A stretch of 25,521 nt of DNA, taken from UHGV virus genome UHGV-0301809; one strand, written 5' to 3'. Of this stretch, positions 8,062 through 18,960 are shown in pieces. The translations under genes and the position numbers were made by a program. The stretch comes from a virus. A model generated the notes under the pieces. It was not told the origin of the DNA and did no database searches. It saw only the letters and a program-made list of their open reading frames with translations. Position 1 is the stretch's first letter, and each line of letters begins with the position of its first letter.

Positions 8062-8562
8062 ATGAGTAAGAGACGTCACGAGGTAGTAACTCGGGAGCGC
8101 CTTATGGAGGTTCTCGATTACAATAAAGAAACAGGAATTTTCACTTGGAAAAAGAAATTAAGCGCCAGAGGTGCTGTTGGGAAAGTTGCTGGCACAATTT
8201 CTTATGGATATAACGCAATTAATATTGATGGCGTAAGATATTTTGCACATAGACTTGCCTGGCTGTATGTATATGGCGAATGGCCCAAACAAGAGATTGA
8301 CCACATTGATAGAAACAGAAGAAATAACGCAATCTCAAACCTTAGGGATGTCAGCAGAGTCGTAAATGCATTAAATGTCGGACCTCGAAATAGCAATGCT
8401 GGAATCAAGGGGGTAACTTTCTGTCAAGCCAGAAATCAATGGCAAGCTCAGATAAATGTCTCAGGTAAAAACATAACCCTTGGGAGATTCAACACCATTG
8501 ATGAAGCGGCTATAGCTTATAAGGCAGCAAACATGGTTGCTGACCATCTGTTGAGTAGGTGA
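8062..8562 (+). CDS. HNH homing endonuclease with C-terminal AP2-type DNA-binding domain (copy 1)
   Basis: ATG 8062 after GGAG at 7-nt spacing; HNH block [38 protein letters not shown]2-like block [41 protein letters not shown]; track TTG 8020 start rejected. Confidence 0.8.
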
Positions 8563-8693
8563 TATCTGACATTTCATTGCTCCAGACGAATGATATGATG
8601 CAACCATGATGTGATTGCATACCGAAATGGTACTATTGAGTATTTATCCAGTAGGTTACGATGCCATTCCACCCAACTGGTGAGGCATCAAGG

Positions 8694-8954
8694 ATGTACA
8701 GCAAATACGACGAGGCGCAGTTTCACTTGAGACTTCCGCATGAACTCCACGAGAAAATTAAGCAGCGTGCGAAGATGAATAACAGGTCGCTGAACTCAGA
8801 GATAATTGCAGCGATTGAGGAATCATTGGATAAACAAAGCTCTGCATCAGTTTACATTGACGATGCAGAGCGTATGGCAGAACAACAATCTGATATGGTT
8901 AAGAAAATTGTCTTTGATACGCTCAAGAAGCTATATAAAAAAGACAGCAGATAA
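8694..8954 (+). CDS. mnt: Mnt-like ribbon-helix-helix repressor
   Basis: ...FHLRLPHELHEKIKQRAKMNNRSLNSEIIAAIEESL...DDAERMAEQQSDMVKKIVFDTLKKLYKK parallels my recollection of P22 Mnt (...NDAERLADEQSELVKKMVFDTLKDLYKK); internal ATG 8694 chosen over track start 8661. Confidence 0.8.
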   Translation: MYSKYDEAQFHLRLPHELHEKIKQRAKMNNRSLNSEIIAAIEESLDKQSSASVYIDDAERMAEQQSDMVKKIVFDTLKKLYKKDSR

Positions 8955-9043
8955 CCATCCGTTACGGAGGATTTATGCACAGAGATATGCTGAATATTGC
9001 GTTCTACATATTTGGTTTTTGCACGTTCATGGTGTTTGCGAAG

Positions 9044-11041
9044 CTATTCTGACAGCGCATCAGACTTAGCCCCCTGAGTCAGGGCGTTAATGGCCTTTTG
9101 TGCCTGCTGCATGGCTTTCTCGAACGCTGTTGATCCGCGTGGGGTGTTTGCCATTCGGAGCATTGCATTTCTGAATGGCTCGCTCTCATAGGCGCGAGTA
9201 AGAAGTCCGTAGCTTACCGCTGCGCCAGTTGTCGCAGGGTTCATTGCTGTCCCATATCCGATAATGAACGGGATGGTTTGCTGCCCTGTTGGTGTTGTTA
9301 CTGCCGCTTTTGCAGCCTGCTGCGTGGATTGCAGGTAGTTTTTCAATCCTTTCAGATAAGCGGCTTCCTGACCTTTAAATGTGATGCCAGTCTGGTTTTG
9401 CAGGATGTTAAGCTGTCGAAGGAACTGGTCAGGGGAACCACCTGATTTCTCCATCGCCTTTCCAATGATGCCATTGCGCATTTGCGCCCTGCCAACACGA
9501 CCAACTGAGTTATACAGCGTCTTAATTTCCGATTTGTTCTTGCTGAATAGCATGTTGTTGACAACTTCCGGCGTCAGGTCGCCTTTCATGAGAACATTCT
9601 TCAGCCTGGTATTCTTTAGTTTCGCCGCTTCGTCAGCGTAGACGGCATTGGCCTGCTGATATTTACGGAGAGTATCGTTGCCAAGATTCTGACCAATGGC
9701 ACCATTGATATCGTCTGTCATCGCCTTGTAAACACGCTGAATGGCAGCATCGGAACGGTTTGGTAACACTGGTCGTTCCCCCTTCACGTCCATTCTGAAC
9801 TGGCTGCGCAGATCGCTTAATTGCTTCAAATCCAGATTAACCGGACCATCAGGGCCAGCATTGCGAACAAGCTCATCACGATATGACTGAAGTTTTGAAA
9901 TTGTCTCGTTATCAGCTACCTTACCAAGCTTCTGCAGATTAGATATTTCTGTATCAATCTGCTGAATTGCTCGCGCAGGCTGAATGTTTACTCCAGCCAT
10001 AGCATTCTGAACCTGCTCCAGTCGATTACCGGCGGCACGACGAATTCCTAATGTTTTCGCTTTAAGGCTGTCAATAACAACAGATGGATCATACTCACCG
10101 AATTTATCAGCAAATCTCTGCACCAACTGGCTTCTCGCTTCCTGTTGCGTTGCTCTCATTCCGCTTGTGCCAGCCAGAGGGATATTTTCTGCTGTAGTCT
10201 GCGCCATTTTTCCGACGCGGGAAGTGGGTTGTAACAGGTCTGTGGTGTGCAGAGGAACGCCTTCACGCTCTGCAAATCTGATAGCTTGCTGTGCTTCTGG
10301 CGCAATAGCACCACGAACTCCACGATAAGCAGCACCTAATCCACGTCCGGCAGCGTTAATAGCACCGCCAGCCAGCACACCAACGCCTAAATCGGTGGCG
10401 AGTGCTTCCGCATCATCTTTCGCACTATTTGCAGCAAGTGATCCAACTGCGTTTTCTGCTAGAAGGCGAGTTGCCCCCTGAGCAATTCGACCAGCAAGTG
10501 TTGGTGCCTGTACCGCCGCTCTCTCAACGCCAGCAGGAGTGAGGTAAGGCAATGCTTCAGAAAATACCCTTCCCTCTGTCGTTTGTGGAGTCAGCGCACC
10601 TTGCTGAAGGCCAAAGTCCTGCTCTAATCCCTGCGTTGTTACTCGTGGTGCTGGTTGATATGTACCATCGCCAATACCGAGTTTACCGCCAGCCCAAGCC
10701 GCCGCGCTTGTTACAGCATCGGCAACTGATGCAGGTATGTTTGCCACGTTCACGCCAGCCTGCACCAGTCCACGACCAGTCTCTTTTACTGCTTCACCAA
10801 GATCAGACATAAATCCACTTTGCTGTGGTTGTTGCTGTGCTACTGGTTGTTGTGTCTCCACTGGCTGCACAGATGGCAATGGATAGGCAGCATAGAAAGC
10901 TTGCTTAGCCTGCTCTGCATTTTCTCCGGCTTGCGGGGCCACGACTTCATTGAAGTATTGCTCCTGAGCCTGCGCTTTTTGTTCTGGTGCTAACGCCTGA
11001 TACTGTGGAGAGGCGATAACATCTTTCCATGCTTTAGCCAT
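9044..11041 (-). CDS. ejection (DNA-transfer) protein, P22 gp16-like
   Basis: Size (665 aa) and position after the gp20 homolog at the end of the ejection-protein block; low-complexity Ala/Gly/Gln-rich sequence typical of E-proteins. Confidence 0.7.
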   Translation of the reverse strand: MAKAWKDVIASPQYQALAPEQKAQAQEQYFNEVVAPQAGENAEQAKQAFYAAYPLPSVQPVETQQPVAQQQPQQSGFMSDLGEAVKETGRGLVQAGVNVANIPASVADAVTSAAAWAGGKLGIGDGTYQPAPRVTTQGLEQDFGLQQGALTPQTTEGRVFSEALPYLTPAGVERAAVQAPTLAGRIAQGATRLLAENAVGSLAANSAKDDAEALATDLGVGVLAGGAINAAGRGLGAAYRGVRGAIAPEAQQAIRFAEREGVPLHTTDLLQPTSRVGKMAQTTAENIPLAGTSGMRATQQEARSQLVQRFADKFGEYDPSVVIDSLKAKTLGIRRAAGNRLEQVQNAMAGVNIQPARAIQQIDTEISNLQKLGKVADNETISKLQSYRDELVRNAGPDGPVNLDLKQLSDLRSQFRMDVKGERPVLPNRSDAAIQRVYKAMTDDINGAIGQNLGNDTLRKYQQANAVYADEAAKLKNTRLKNVLMKGDLTPEVVNNMLFSKNKSEIKTLYNSVGRVGRAQMRNGIIGKAMEKSGGSPDQFLRQLNILQNQTGITFKGQEAAYLKGLKNYLQSTQQAAKAAVTTPTGQQTIPFIIGYGTAMNPATTGAAVSYGLLTRAYESEPFRNAMLRMANTPRGSTAFEKAMQQAQKAINALTQGAKSDALSE

Positions 11042-12429
11042 TAATCACCCCATAGTGAAGAAAAGTTACTGCTGGCTGCTGGCTGTGATACCTGTGCAGA
11101 TTGAGATTGCTTCCGCTGAGATTTACCAACATTAACGTTATATTGTTGGTTGTAATTGTTGGTGTATTCCTGAATTTCACGAATCGACTGCTGCATAGCC
11201 TCCGGGCTTGAATAGTCAACCTGCGGCATCCCCTGAAAATACATCTTCGCTTCTGCAACGGTGTTAATACCACTGGCACCCATGTCCCTTGCTGCCGCCA
11301 CGCCCTGATTCTGCATTCTTCCCTGAATACGTTGTGCTGAGTTATATAACTGGCGCTGCTCTTTTCCTGTTAATCGGCTGCGAACATCAGCACCAATTGC
11401 CGGGTTACCTGCACCGCCGGTCATTCCTGTCATGAAATCGAGAGCAGAAGCGTCTGCATTTGCGATCGCGTCGATATCCTTCTTCATGGCATAGTTTTGT
11501 GCTGATGCAGACGATGTTGCAGGCGCTGCGATTGAACTGGCAGGAACGCGAACCATATTCCCCTCGTTGTCGATGCCTTCGTAGAACGCATTAGCCCCAG
11601 CGCCGTGAAGCTTCCCGCCTACCGTTACAGTTCTGCCATCTGATAACTGAACTGTACGCTCATCATTCCCAGCGGTTCCTCTTGTTGACGCTCGCTGCAT
11701 TGCCAAATCCTGCCCGCGTCGCGCAGTAGAAGCAGATAAATCCTGACCGCGCATCGTGATGTTTTGACCTCGTGCTGTTAGCGCCTCTCCGGCCTGATTG
11801 CTGCGGATTGTCTCTGCCAGTCTGCCTCTGTCAATCTCACGACCAGCCATCTTGTCCTGAACATTGAAGTAATCAATCGGACCAAGAGCAGCCATTCCGA
11901 GGTGATCAACAAACTCGCCAAATCCTGAAGGATTCTGCTGATACATCTGAGCAACGTTGTTAGGGTCAACGCCGACGCGCGCCAGTTCCTTGGCGTTGTT
12001 TTGCAGCCATGATTGCATTGCTTCTGGAGACGATGACGCAAGGCGTGCGCCAGCCGCTAAGGTGCCGATAGAATTACGCTGGTCTTCATCAATGAATCCC
12101 ATGCCTTTACGAACGGATTCAATCTGGTCTGGATATTGAGTAGCCAACTGACGCAAAGCACCGCGATCACCAGACGCATAAGCATTAGCGTACGCCTGCT
12201 GAAATTCTTTCTGCCGCTGAGCCTGCTTTTCCTGCTGAAGCACCCCTGCAATACCTGAAAGGCCTTGCAAAGCAGTCAGCCCAACATTGTTAGCGCCTGA
12301 ACGCTCAATATCATTGTTCTGCCTGATAAGCTGAAGCGTATTGCCGATGTCATTTACGCTCGGGGCGTTTGAGTTGACGCCGCCGATACCAGCCAACAAT
12401 CCGCCGTTTGTTCCTTGCCAAGTAGCCAT
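11041..12429 (-). CDS. ejection protein, P22 gp20-like
   Basis: 462 aa, synteny between gp7 and gp16 homologs; start overlaps upstream stop. Confidence 0.7.
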
Positions 12430-12438
12430 GATTACCCC

Positions 12439-13131
12439 TTAAAACAACGAGCCAAGCAGGCCAAGTCCGCCGCCAATTGCCGCACCTAATCCAGTGCCAA
12501 GTCCTGGAACAATAGAGCCAAGAGCAGCGCCAGTCATAGCCCCTGAAGCTCCGCCGCTAATTGCTGTCTGAAGACCTGATGGTTTATTGGCATTAGCAGC
12601 GGCAAGAGCCGCACTTTGCTGCGAAATCTGACTCATGTTGTTGGCATATGTCTGCCCGGCGTTTGCCTGACCTTGCAGTGCGCCAAGACCAATATTTGCC
12701 AGATTCTGGTAGTTGTTCATCTGACCAGACAGCCACTGCTGACCAAGCGTTGGTGCGATTGTTGCTAACTGATTACCGGTTGCAGTGGAACCCAATCCAC
12801 CTGTTGCTTCCGCTGCCGCCAGACTCTGATAGCGAGCCTGACCAGCAAGATCTTTGTACTGCTGAGAGTTGTAATACTGGTTAAGTGCCTGACCTTGCCC
12901 CTGAAGAGAGGAAAGATTCTGCAATTGTGATACGTACTGCTGAGCGAGTGGCGTGAACGGAGCAAGGTTTTTCATGATCGTCTGCCACTGCTGATTCTGC
13001 AGGTCTGCGGCATACTTCTGAGCTTCTGCTGCATACTTTGCGCTTTTATCGGACCCACCTTTCCCGCCTTTTTCAGGGCAATAAGGTTCCTCTCCGCGCA
13101 GTTTTCTGCCCAGCTTAAATGCATATAACAT
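12439..13131 (-). CDS. ejection protein, P22 gp7-like
   Basis: 230 aa; N-terminus MLYAFKLGRKLRGEEPYCPEKGGKGGS followed by Gln/Ala/Gly-rich region; synteny. Confidence 0.7.
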   Translation of the reverse strand: MLYAFKLGRKLRGEEPYCPEKGGKGGSDKSAKYAAEAQKYAADLQNQQWQTIMKNLAPFTPLAQQYVSQLQNLSSLQGQGQALNQYYNSQQYKDLAGQARYQSLAAAEATGGLGSTATGNQLATIAPTLGQQWLSGQMNNYQNLANIGLGALQGQANAGQTYANNMSQISQQSAALAAANANKPSGLQTAISGGASGAMTGAALGSIVPGLGTGLGAAIGGGLGLLGSLF

Positions 13132-17075: not shown

Positions 17076-18371
17076 TCACGCGGTCTGGTTAGGCAGACCA
17101 ACACCAATTGCCTCTGGTCGTACAGCACATGCTGAATACCACACAGCAATACGGCACTTACCAGACAGAGTGTTGATATCACCCTGCGTTGCGAAGATGC
17201 CGTTAACACCAATACCAGGAATGCTGAAGGAAGACGTTTTCATGCCAGCAAACAGTTCATGGGTTACCGGGATCGGCTGAGACAGCAGACGGATTGAGTC
17301 ATCAGCCCAGAACACGTTAGCGGTGGTTGTTGCCACGTTCAGAACGTTTACCGGAGTGGTATTAGCAAGAGAGGTGTTTACGTTAGCGTAAGCCTTCTCT
17401 TCTTTTGTCAGTGACGCGTCATCCAGTGCAATCGGTTTCGGCGTGATTTCGATGCGAGTACCATCGATCACACGGGTGATTGAGAAAGTCGCATCATCAG
17501 TTAGCACGTTCTTCGCCATCTGAGACAGGAATTTCACACCAGTGAAACTGATTTTGTCGCCGCGCTTAAATTCGGTGGTGGAGGATACGGTCACCGTTGC
17601 AACACGGTTGTCGACGTTCTCTTTGTTACCATCGGTATCAAGGGTGTATGCCTGCGGCTTAAACTTCTGCGCACCAGAAACAGTTACACCAGTAGCGGTT
17701 GACTTGGTAACTGCCGGAAGTTTCGGTGAGCGAAGAATTTCATCAAAGCCAGCAATCTGACGCTGAATAGTACCGTTGCGATATGCTTCTTCAGGAACGC
17801 GCCCGAAGATGTCACCATCTACCAGGTTGCGGCCTGCTTTGCGGTAATCGTCAGGGTTCAGGAAGTAACTGATGCCCATATCGCGGTTTAGCTCACGGGA
17901 GAACATCAGGCGCTCTGCATCAGACACAAAATCCCAGCCAGACAGGCCAGTAGATGGACCAATTGCGCGGGTATCGTGAACAACAAGCGAGCCCATTTCA
18001 GTTGCCTGTTTGGCAATTGCTGACTCAATGTTATTCGCCAGTTTTTTGGCGGATGCCTGGATGCGGCGACGGTAAGAACGCTCATCACGCAGGTCATCTG
18101 CACGAAGCTCGAAGAAATCGTTATCCGGATCGCCCATGTTGCATTTCACGGACAGCTCCAGAATCCCGGTTGCGTTGCCAGTTAAATCCCAGCCAGTCTG
18201 AGTTGGCGCTTCCTGCTCAACAGGCATCCACACGGTGTTGCTTGAACGCTGCATGGATTCTGCCGGAGGGGTGTATTTTGTCACTTTGGACGCCATTGGC
18301 GTCAGGTTCTGGACGGTTTCGATGATTTCATCGATAGCGTAAGTAACTAACTGCCCTTCTTTGAGAGTCAT
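17076..18371 (-). CDS. major capsid (coat) protein, P22 gp5-like
   Basis: 431 aa; [54 protein letters not shown]... closely parallels P22 coat protein as I recall it. Confidence 0.9.
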
Positions 18372-18438: not shown

Positions 18439-18960
18439 ATGAGCATGGAACTGAATGAATACTTCGAATACCGAGATGGTTCTTTGGTTTGGAAAGCCAG
18501 AAGCTCTGAATTTTTCAACAACAAAAAGAATCGCAACTATCACAACGTTTGGAATGCAAAACACGCTGGGAAAGTTGCTGGTCTTTTAGAAAGCAATGGA
18601 TATATCCGCATAAGAATTAACGGCATTAAGTGGCTAGCACACCGCATCGTATGGGTAATGTTTAACGGAGATATTCCAGAAGGCATGGAAATTGACCATA
18701 TAAATGGGATTCGCCACGACAACAGAATTGAAAATCTTCGTCTTGTGAAAAAATCAGCAAACCAAAGGAATAGAATCAAACTATCTAAAAATAACTCCAG
18801 CGGAATATCTGGAGTTTACTTTTGCAACACGCGGAAAAGATGGATCGCTCATAAGCGACTGCTTAATGCAAGAGTGCAAAAAGTATGTTCTTCATTCGAA
18901 GAGGCGAAAGAAGTAATCAGAAAGTTTGACGAGGAAAACAACATCACGATATCGAAATAA
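18439..18960 (+). CDS. HNH homing endonuclease with C-terminal AP2-type domain (copy 2)
   Basis: HNH block AHRIVWVMFNGDIPEGMEIDHINGIRHDNRIENLRLV; AP2-like GISGVYFCNTRKRWIAHKRLLNARVQKVCSSFEEAKEV; AT-rich upstream region with TATA-like elements. Confidence 0.8.
   Translation: MSMELNEYFEYRDGSLVWKARSSEFFNNKKNRNYHNVWNAKHAGKVAGLLESNGYIRIRINGIKWLAHRIVWVMFNGDIPEGMEIDHINGIRHDNRIENLRLVKKSANQRNRIKLSKNNSSGISGVYFCNTRKRWIAHKRLLNARVQKVCSSFEEAKEVIRKFDEENNITISK

Follow-up and report, generated by a model that had tools for sequence, protein, structure and literature searches.

A P22-like phage of Escherichia coli with an mnt repressor gene lacking arc and ant and a tailspike gene rebuilt around an HNH cassette

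The window analysed here is a 25,521-nucleotide stretch of the UHGV virus genome UHGV-0301809, part of a P22-like (Lederbergvirus) genome from Escherichia coli whose late genes lie on the minus strand. The locus under study corresponds to immI of P22 and is flanked by gene 16 and the tailspike gene; in it, a homologue of the repressor gene mnt is preceded by a short non-coding region. An earlier interpretation made from the letters alone (the sequence-only reading) had drawn attention to this region. The features on which the analysis centres are the following.

8694 to 8954, plus strand: mnt homologue encoding 86 amino acids (aa), identified by Pfam, by 50% identity to P22 Mnt and by PDB matches.
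8620 to 8632, no strand: predicted Mnt operator TACCGAAATGGTA (TACC-N5-GGTA), centred on 8626, at the position of P22 Omnt.
8636 to 8662, plus strand: predicted Pmnt equivalent, with a -35 element TTGAGT (8636-8641), a 15-bp spacer and a -10 element TACGAT (8657-8662).
8642 to 8650, minus strand: decayed Pant equivalent, with a -10-like TGgATAAAT (or AATACT) and no usable -35 element.
8598 to 8620, no strand: 23-bp imperfect palindrome ATGCAACCA-tgatg-TGATTGCAT, found in the subtype formed by IME10 and the window.
8975 to 9052, plus strand: small open reading frame (ORF) for a hydrophobic 25-aa product (MHRDMLNIAFYIFGFCTFMVFAKLF), with a GGAGGA ribosome-binding site at 8966-8971.

The gene at 8694-8954 is a bona fide member of the Mnt repressor family and is under purifying selection. 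A longer mechanical ORF surrounds it (8661-8954, plus strand); the start was set at the ATG at 8694, which agrees with P22 Mnt, is the choice of the Prokaryotic Genome Annotation Pipeline in E. coli VE-T9 and 90-9281, and has a GAGG ribosome-binding site (8682-8685) 8 nt on its 5' side. Both domains of Mnt are present: residues 7-49 match the N-terminal ribbon-helix-helix family (Pfam Arc, PF03869, E = 5e-16) and residues 57-82 the C-terminal tetramerisation helix (Pfam Repressor_Mnt, PF11423, E = 8.7e-15). Over residues 6-85 the protein shares 50% identity with P22 Mnt, and its top PDB matches are 1MNT (1e-19; residues 3-75 aligned) and the Mnt tetramerisation domain 1QEY (4e-8). As in P22, mnt is placed between gene 16 (9044-11041, minus strand) and the tailspike gene (5673-8048, minus strand) in the opposite orientation. 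A tblastn search of 8049-9043 with the Arc and Ant proteins of P22 and Kapi1 found neither gene between gene 16 and the tailspike, in agreement with the sequence-only reading, which had described an Mnt-like repressor standing without arc and ant. Related copies of mnt are intact in 108 of 110 cases; across 60 unique alleles the median pairwise ratio of nonsynonymous to synonymous substitution (dN/dS) is 0.14, and variable sites fall 16/13/40 at the first, second and third codon positions.

The recognition strand of the window protein reads QFHLRL, against HFNFRM in P22 Mnt. Residues 6, 8 and 10 of this strand are said, in work from the Sauer laboratory, to contact operator bases, and the pairings given below agree with this. 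In the curated P22 record, Omnt (AGGTCCAC-C-GTGGACCT) lies immediately 5' of the Pmnt -35 element TTGAGA, and Pant and the Arc operator overlap on its other side. At the same position in the window, TACCGAAATGGTA abuts cTATTGAGT, and the distance from the conserved ATTGAG to the mnt ATG is 53 nt (51 nt in P22). The chance expectation for TACC-N5-GGTA is 0.14 per window. Comparison of the palindromes found at the operator position gives three pairings of recognition strand and palindrome.

HFNFRM (P22, epsilon34): palindrome AGGTCCAC-C-GTGGACCT.
QFNLRL (Gally, ST160, Brookers): palindrome AGACCAC-N-GTGGTCT.
QFHLRL (the window, IME10, VSe13, JEP4, Serratia, E1V33): palindrome ATACC(G/T)AAA(T/C)GGTAC.

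Within 8563-8693, the palindrome TACC-N5-GGTA is kept in every QFHLRL lineage, while other palindromes stand where the recognition strand differs. This co-variation spans lineages whose Mnt proteins are just ~50-65% identical to each other. Because strand and palindrome change together, the suggestion in the sequence-only reading that this repressor uses a different operator from that of P22 gains support and can be localised to 8620-8632, where a different palindrome occupies the P22 Omnt position. The spacing from operator to Pmnt is constant at 1-3 nt, whereas that from operator to tailspike ATG varies between ~45 and 79 nt. E. coli 90-9281 carries a complete 40-kb prophage, in which there is one operator-like site besides a match in the coding sequence of the coat gene.

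That coat-gene match also occurs in the window as a second TACC-N5-GGTA sequence, TACCGGAGTGGTA, at 17349-17361, and probably matches by chance, lying in coding sequence that is conserved. A search of the window for a further operator that might control antA or other genes returned only TACCGGAGTGGTA at 17349 and sites with two to three mismatches, at chance level.

The 23-bp palindrome at 8598-8620 was considered in two other roles. It does not qualify as an Mnt operator, since the JEP4/VSe13/L016 subtype lacks it despite having the same recognition strand, and the window holds no second copy. As an RNA hairpin on the minus strand it folds no better than shuffled sequences (z = -0.6). Its allele in IME10 is a perfect palindrome and Escherichia sp. 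E1V33 carries one compensatory arm change; the arm change and a G.U versus A.U polymorphism are suggestive of a hairpin.

The region is mosaic. By megablast, positions 7900-8586 are 98.7% identical to Kapi1 and positions 8558-9200 are 97% identical to IME10. IME10 and Sf101 have this mnt allele (95-99% protein identity) immediately next to the tailspike gene, without the HNH gene, arc or ant, and mnt also adjoins the tailspike without arc and ant in Gally, ST160, VSe13, Brookers and JEP4. In ~65 of 80 IMG/VR loci with an Mnt identity of 94% or more, the start codons of mnt and the tailspike gene are exactly 121 bp apart and the HNH gene is missing. Of 5426 complete E. coli genomes, 256-277 contain the mnt region and none the whole arrangement of the window. 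The complete prophage in E. coli 90-9281 matches the mnt region with 100% identity and has no HNH, ant, arc or antA; in E. coli VE-T9 the HNH-mnt junction lies within a degraded prophage.

The same layout dominates two operator classes. For the group-A operator (TACC-N5-GGTA), most matches in a pattern scan of IMG/VR were due to chance and a scan of genome contigs gave three loci; the tailspike gene stood beside the operator in 39 of the 39 IMG/VR loci among the matches listed. At group-B operator loci, 43 of 46 carry an orphan mnt beside the tailspike gene, and three (L213, L266 and L277) have a full mnt-arc-ant region. The mnt-only layout is the usual state for the Mnt type of the window, and it is already in the literature: the variable region has been named the "ant moron", with mnt-only versions in ST64T, ST104 and Para1 (PMC2629481), and for the mnt-like gene of phage L both a new function and the state of a remnant have been considered (PMC8022706). 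The orphan region therefore has no claim to novelty, mnt-only regions having been published before (PMC2629481; PMC8022706).

These comparisons bear on the idea that the locus is a decaying, functionless immI remnant left after deletion of arc and ant. A remnant was one possibility raised for the phage L gene (PMC8022706), the region changes rapidly among P22-like phages (PMC2629481), and the window has a decayed Pant, all of which would suit this view. The selection data argue against it, because dN/dS is 0.14, 108 of 110 copies are intact, and operator and recognition strand change in concert between lineages whose Mnt proteins share only ~50-65% identity; the orphan layout is, moreover, the majority state in two operator classes. 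The remnant explanation is disfavoured and considered highly improbable.

Set beside P22 immI (mnt-Omnt/Pmnt/Pant/Oarc-arc-sar-ant), the window agrees in its position between gene 16 and gene 9, in orientation, in the two-domain Mnt and in the palindrome in front of the Pmnt -35 element. It differs from P22 in the absence of arc, sar, ant and the ant terminator, in its decayed Pant and in its recognition strand and operator; it also lacks sieA and orf59a, having the 25-aa ORF after mnt instead. ST64T, ST104, Para1 and phage L share with it the mnt-only order tailspike-operator-mnt-(small gene)-gene 16 (PMC2629481; PMC8022706), and the records of ST160, SE1, Gally, Brookers, VSe13, Sf101 and IME10 show the same layout with no antirepressor. 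Unlike these mnt-only phages, the window has an HNH cassette that separates the operator region from the tailspike gene, and Gally, ST160 and Brookers differ further in belonging to the QFNLRL class rather than to QFHLRL.

Promoters were scored on both strands with one simple position-weight matrix, for which the best score in shuffled sequence has a median of 8.9 and a 99th percentile of 14.0. With this matrix P22 Pant scores 16.7 and P22 Pmnt 14.3. The Pmnt equivalent scores 8.5 in the window and 8.5-11.8 in the orphan lineages, and for the best tailspike-sense site the values are 6.8 (window) and 5-7 (most orphan lineages). The Pmnt equivalent, with a predicted transcription start at ~8669 (plus strand), is positionally homologous to the annotated P22 Pmnt (TTGAGA-17-TATCAT); in all the orphan lineages tested, the Pmnt-like -10 element stops 30-35 nt short of the mnt ATG, compared with 27 nt in P22. 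Because scores of 8.5-11.8 are not above those of shuffles, it is positional conservation only that argues for this promoter. The strong divergent Pant has been lost, its remaining equivalent scoring below the shuffled median. Half of the Arc-operator motif (CAGTAG) is retained in the promoter spacer of the window. No intrinsic terminator was found 3' of mnt or of the HNH gene, and 7900-9200 gave no relevant Rfam match to a known RNA such as sar.

These scores are central to a second explanation, advanced by the sequence-only reading, in which a Pant-like, Mnt-repressed promoter upstream of mnt reads into the tailspike gene across the antisense HNH gene and Mnt is a regulator of the tailspike. 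Several features are compatible with it. The operator is placed so as to cover the start of the Pant equivalent, the CTCAATAG motif downstream of the P22 Pant -10 element is kept, and an extended -10-like TGgATAAAT is present at 8650-8642. In HNH-less relatives, only 54 nt separate the operator centre from the tailspike start. In P22 itself, an effect of Pant transcription on the expression of the tailspike has been reported (PMC2629481). In CUS-3-like, JEP4-like and Serratia loci a QFHLRL-type Mnt stays by its own operator, while ant belongs to a separate module elsewhere, equipped with ribbon-helix-helix repressors of its own; in the CUS-3-like and JEP4 loci the tailspike gene is the operator-side neighbour.

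Against this explanation, the best tailspike-sense score (6.8 in the window, 5-7 in most orphans) is below the shuffled median of 8.9 and far from the 16.7 of P22 Pant, and no promoter-like site above 8.3 exists on the minus strand anywhere in 7700-9100. The tailspike-sense sites differ between orphan subtypes: the -10-like element is not conserved between them and is missing from group-B orphans. A tailspike is also expressed by phages that have no mnt, Sf6 among them. Because the scores are low and not conserved and the distance from operator to tailspike is variable, a divergent Mnt-controlled tailspike promoter is unsupported by the sequence, and we regard this explanation as unlikely, even if a weak tailspike-directed promoter could still be present in 8563-8693. 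Since no minus-strand site in 7700-9100 exceeds 8.3, tailspike expression presumably depends on read-through of the late operon.

One CUS-3-like IMG/VR contig (L150) carries two tandem Mnt-like genes, an Arc-like gene and ant in addition to a QFHLRL-type mnt beside the tailspike gene. Its ant promoter region (7820-7915) contains the direct repeats GCGTACCTAAATAC and GCGTACCACATAC, which resemble the group-A operator half-site.

The tailspike side of the locus is shaped by the HNH cassette, which comprises or adjoins the following features.

8062 to 8562, plus strand: gene for a putative free-standing HNH_3 endonuclease, 166 aa (Pfam HNH_3, 2.5e-16; mechanical ORF start at 8020).
8558 to 8583, minus strand: stranded ancestral tailspike 5' end, with GGAG at 8583-8580, ATG at 8572 and codons M-S-D-I-T.
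5673 to 8048, minus strand: tailspike gene with a P22-type head-binding domain (Pfam Head_binding, 1.9e-62; alignment with IME10 and Kapi1).
8000 to 8028, plus strand: best HNH promoter-like site, TTGGTT-17-TATAAT, scoring 12.7, the highest in 7700-9100 on either strand.
9044 to 11041, 11041 to 12429 and 12439 to 13131, minus strand: late genes 16, 20 and 7, respectively.

Alignment of the window with IME10 and Kapi1 places the insertion, a cassette of ~520 bp (~8040-8557), after tailspike codon 5 (ATG TCA GAT ATC ACC, then the cassette). The empty site is ATGTCAGATATCACCGCAAATGTTGT, as in the IME10-type tailspike 5' end. The segment 8558-8583 is identical to the functional tailspike start of IME10, and Kapi1 has the same junction with an MTDIT remnant. 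Because 8558-8583 is the stranded tailspike start, the ancestral intergenic region is 8573-8693, 121 bp in length; position 8563 is the first base past the HNH stop codon, which itself lies within target-derived bases. The present tailspike gene starts at 8048 or 8039 with a new N-terminus, M(FIM)PEQLY, supplied by the cassette. This new start has a weak ribosome-binding site, whereas the stranded old start keeps its GGAG. The HNH gene has its own GGAG ribosome-binding site (8052-8055), and the TATAAT of its promoter-like site is the complement of the recoded tailspike codons Gln4-Leu5-Tyr6 (8030-8022, minus strand).

The stranded ribosome-binding site and ATG also open a 20-codon ORF (8510-8583, minus strand) that reads into the HNH antisense strand and, judged by these signals, would be translated from any late transcript.

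The HNH gene of Kapi1 is identical to that of the window in protein (100%) and 98.7% identical in DNA, and Kapi1 also carries ant, arc and mnt. The gene occupies a single fixed position shared by the window, Kapi1 and six to eight IMG/VR loci; ~65 of 80 close relatives have nothing inserted there, and in other loci a second HNH type, 42% identical, occupies the same tailspike site. Tailspike N-termini are 92-94% identical among HNH-bearing loci, compared with 84-86% for loci without HNH. From these patterns the HNH gene is read as a mobile, homing-endonuclease-type insertion unrelated to the state of immI. Arc/ant loss and HNH gain are independent, because HNH coexists with arc and ant in Kapi1 and is absent from most orphan-mnt phages. 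The proposal in the sequence-only reading that HNH occupies the slot of arc and ant fails on these grounds, and the insertion is inside the tailspike gene.

Like the free-standing HNH homing endonucleases of phages, the window gene encodes a small HNH_3 protein, whose tail is a putative AP2-type DNA-binding element (the Pfam AP2 match is below threshold), is present or absent at a fixed site in genomes that are otherwise collinear, shows co-conversion of the flanks and is one of three paralogues within the genome of the window. It differs from them in that the putative nuclease gene sits in the first codons of an essential gene and supplies that gene with its own start codon. The Kapi1 tailspike-HNH junction is alike in the insertion after codon 5 and the replacement N-terminus MPEQLY; Kapi1 is unlike the window in having a complete ant-arc-mnt region to the right of HNH, with an Mnt only 35% identical to that of the window and a different palindrome.

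The two further HNH_3 paralogues lie at 18439-18960 (plus strand), in the gap between scaffold and coat genes, and at 22105-22605 (plus strand), in the gap between portal and terminase genes, and are 43% and 34% identical, respectively, to the HNH at 8062-8562. Both are antisense, and their flanking genes abut each other in the HNH-free prophage of 90-9281. A 2008 survey had found no insertions elsewhere in the morphogenetic clusters of P22-like phages (PMC2629481).

A candidate antirepressor gene lies in the early region of the window.

2932 or 2968 to 3591, plus strand: AntA/P22_AR_C gene (Pfam AntA and P22_AR_C), in the early-left operon before xis.

Its product is 82-88% identical to AntB-type proteins of Stx phages, and a search of the window found no operator-like site near 2932-3591. 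It is an early gene of the Stx-phage type, unrelated to mnt. The sequence-only reading was right that an AntA-type gene is located in the early region; as a stand-in for an Mnt-controlled ant the gene does not hold up, there being no Mnt site near it and no copy in the 90-9281 prophage. An antirepressor elsewhere under Mnt control is likewise not borne out, since that prophage lacks ant, arc and antA and has one operator.

There is a third explanation, in which Mnt made by the prophage silences Pant-ant of incoming relatives with the same operator and so guards against antirepressor-triggered induction. This trans immunity is compatible with autoregulation. In its favour, both the Mnt protein and its operator specificity are maintained by selection, and a role for Mnt expressed from the prophage is established in P22 (PMC2629481). 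Complete group-B mnt-operator-arc-ant regions exist beside the 43 orphans; because L213, L266 and L277 carry them, targets circulate for at least that class. For the operator type of the window, however, no arc or ant was found beside TACC-N5-GGTA in the 39 IMG/VR loci among the matches listed, in 5 phage records or in 3 genome loci, and trans immunity leaves the precise retention of an operator in cis next to Pmnt unexplained. As the main role of the locus it is doubtful.

The interpretation that we favour, with moderate confidence, is that the locus is a functional mnt-only derivative of P22 immI, self-regulated and expressed from the prophage, which the HNH insertion has pushed ~520 bp away from the tailspike gene. 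An Mnt tetramer would bind the single operator, whose centre is ~43 bp upstream of the predicted Pmnt start, and the bound repressor would set the level of its own transcript. This transcript would run from Pmnt through mnt to the 25-aa ORF (8975-9052), against the direction of the late operon, and would be made in the prophage state. Control of an antirepressor in cis would have been lost. Transcripts of the tailspike gene would come from the late operon, by read-through of mnt and the antisense HNH gene, and not from a promoter in 8563-8693. HNH, one of three paralogous HNH_3 genes in this late operon, entered after tailspike codon 5, bringing a replacement 5' end and stranding 8558-8583.

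Several observations weigh against this self-regulated arrangement. The operator and both promoters are predictions drawn from position and comparison alone. The window Pmnt equivalent, with its 15-bp spacer and score of 8.5, is not above shuffled sequence, and an alternative plus-strand site (CTGACA-17-AATGAT, 8566-8594) scores equally. P22 Mnt favours Pmnt by shutting off Pant and is not known to repress Pmnt. A C-to-A change falls within the TACC arm in 2 of 83 close relatives, and the palindrome at 8598-8620 adjoins the operator and could belong to the control region. Finally, mnt is not generally needed for the small ORF, because Sf6 has the ORF without mnt.

A more tentative extension is that the Mnt-operator pair of phages without arc and ant might be a selected unit with a new task, in which case the classes of recognition strand and operator would form a natural specificity series for beta-sheet recognition. 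One candidate for such a task is prophage expression of the 25-aa peptide, acting in exclusion or as a small toxin; another is that bound Mnt serves as a roadblock or insulator gating transcription into the tailspike gene.

The small ORF itself begins 20 nt past the mnt stop codon and overlaps the last 9 nt of gene 16 on the opposite strand. It is intact in ~90 related loci, with a ratio of nonsynonymous to synonymous polymorphism (pN/pS) of 0.24 and variable sites distributed 9/5/14 over the three codon positions; in Sf6 it is intact at 703-780 of locus L336. It is unannotated in the records examined, and other loci have a lipoprotein gene in its place. The ORF is probably co-transcribed with mnt, and its product may be a small membrane protein.

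The locus is an ordinary mosaic variant of a known region and not a new kind of system. The analysis corrects its annotation: the gene is an Mnt homologue, and HNH is, on the comparative evidence, a mobile insertion that replaced neither arc nor ant. With the mnt-only state in the majority in two operator classes, a co-evolving repressor-operator pair under purifying selection and Pant lost, the question posed by phage L, of what an Mnt repressor does without an antirepressor, becomes sharper, an advance that is real but modest. The three natural pairings of strand and operator are potentially useful for studies of ribbon-helix-helix specificity. Phage genomicists may also find interest in the conserved 25-aa ORF and in an endonuclease cassette that gives an essential gene a new start and has its own putative -10 element within the recoded codons.

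Database records of the relatives label this gene variously. The Sf101 records KJ832078 and NC_027398 call the Mnt homologue a partition or chromosome-segregation ATPase, and the IME10 record NC_019501 leaves it unannotated.

Elsewhere in the window, the lambda-type integrase gene at 3873-4751 is truncated, its 292-aa product retaining the first half of the catalytic domain alone. The junction between this gene and a neighbouring acetyltransferase module was found in none of the complete E. coli genomes. Homology to full-length integrases ends at 4685/4686, and a CatB-related hexapeptide O-acetyltransferase module comes next (4982-5653).

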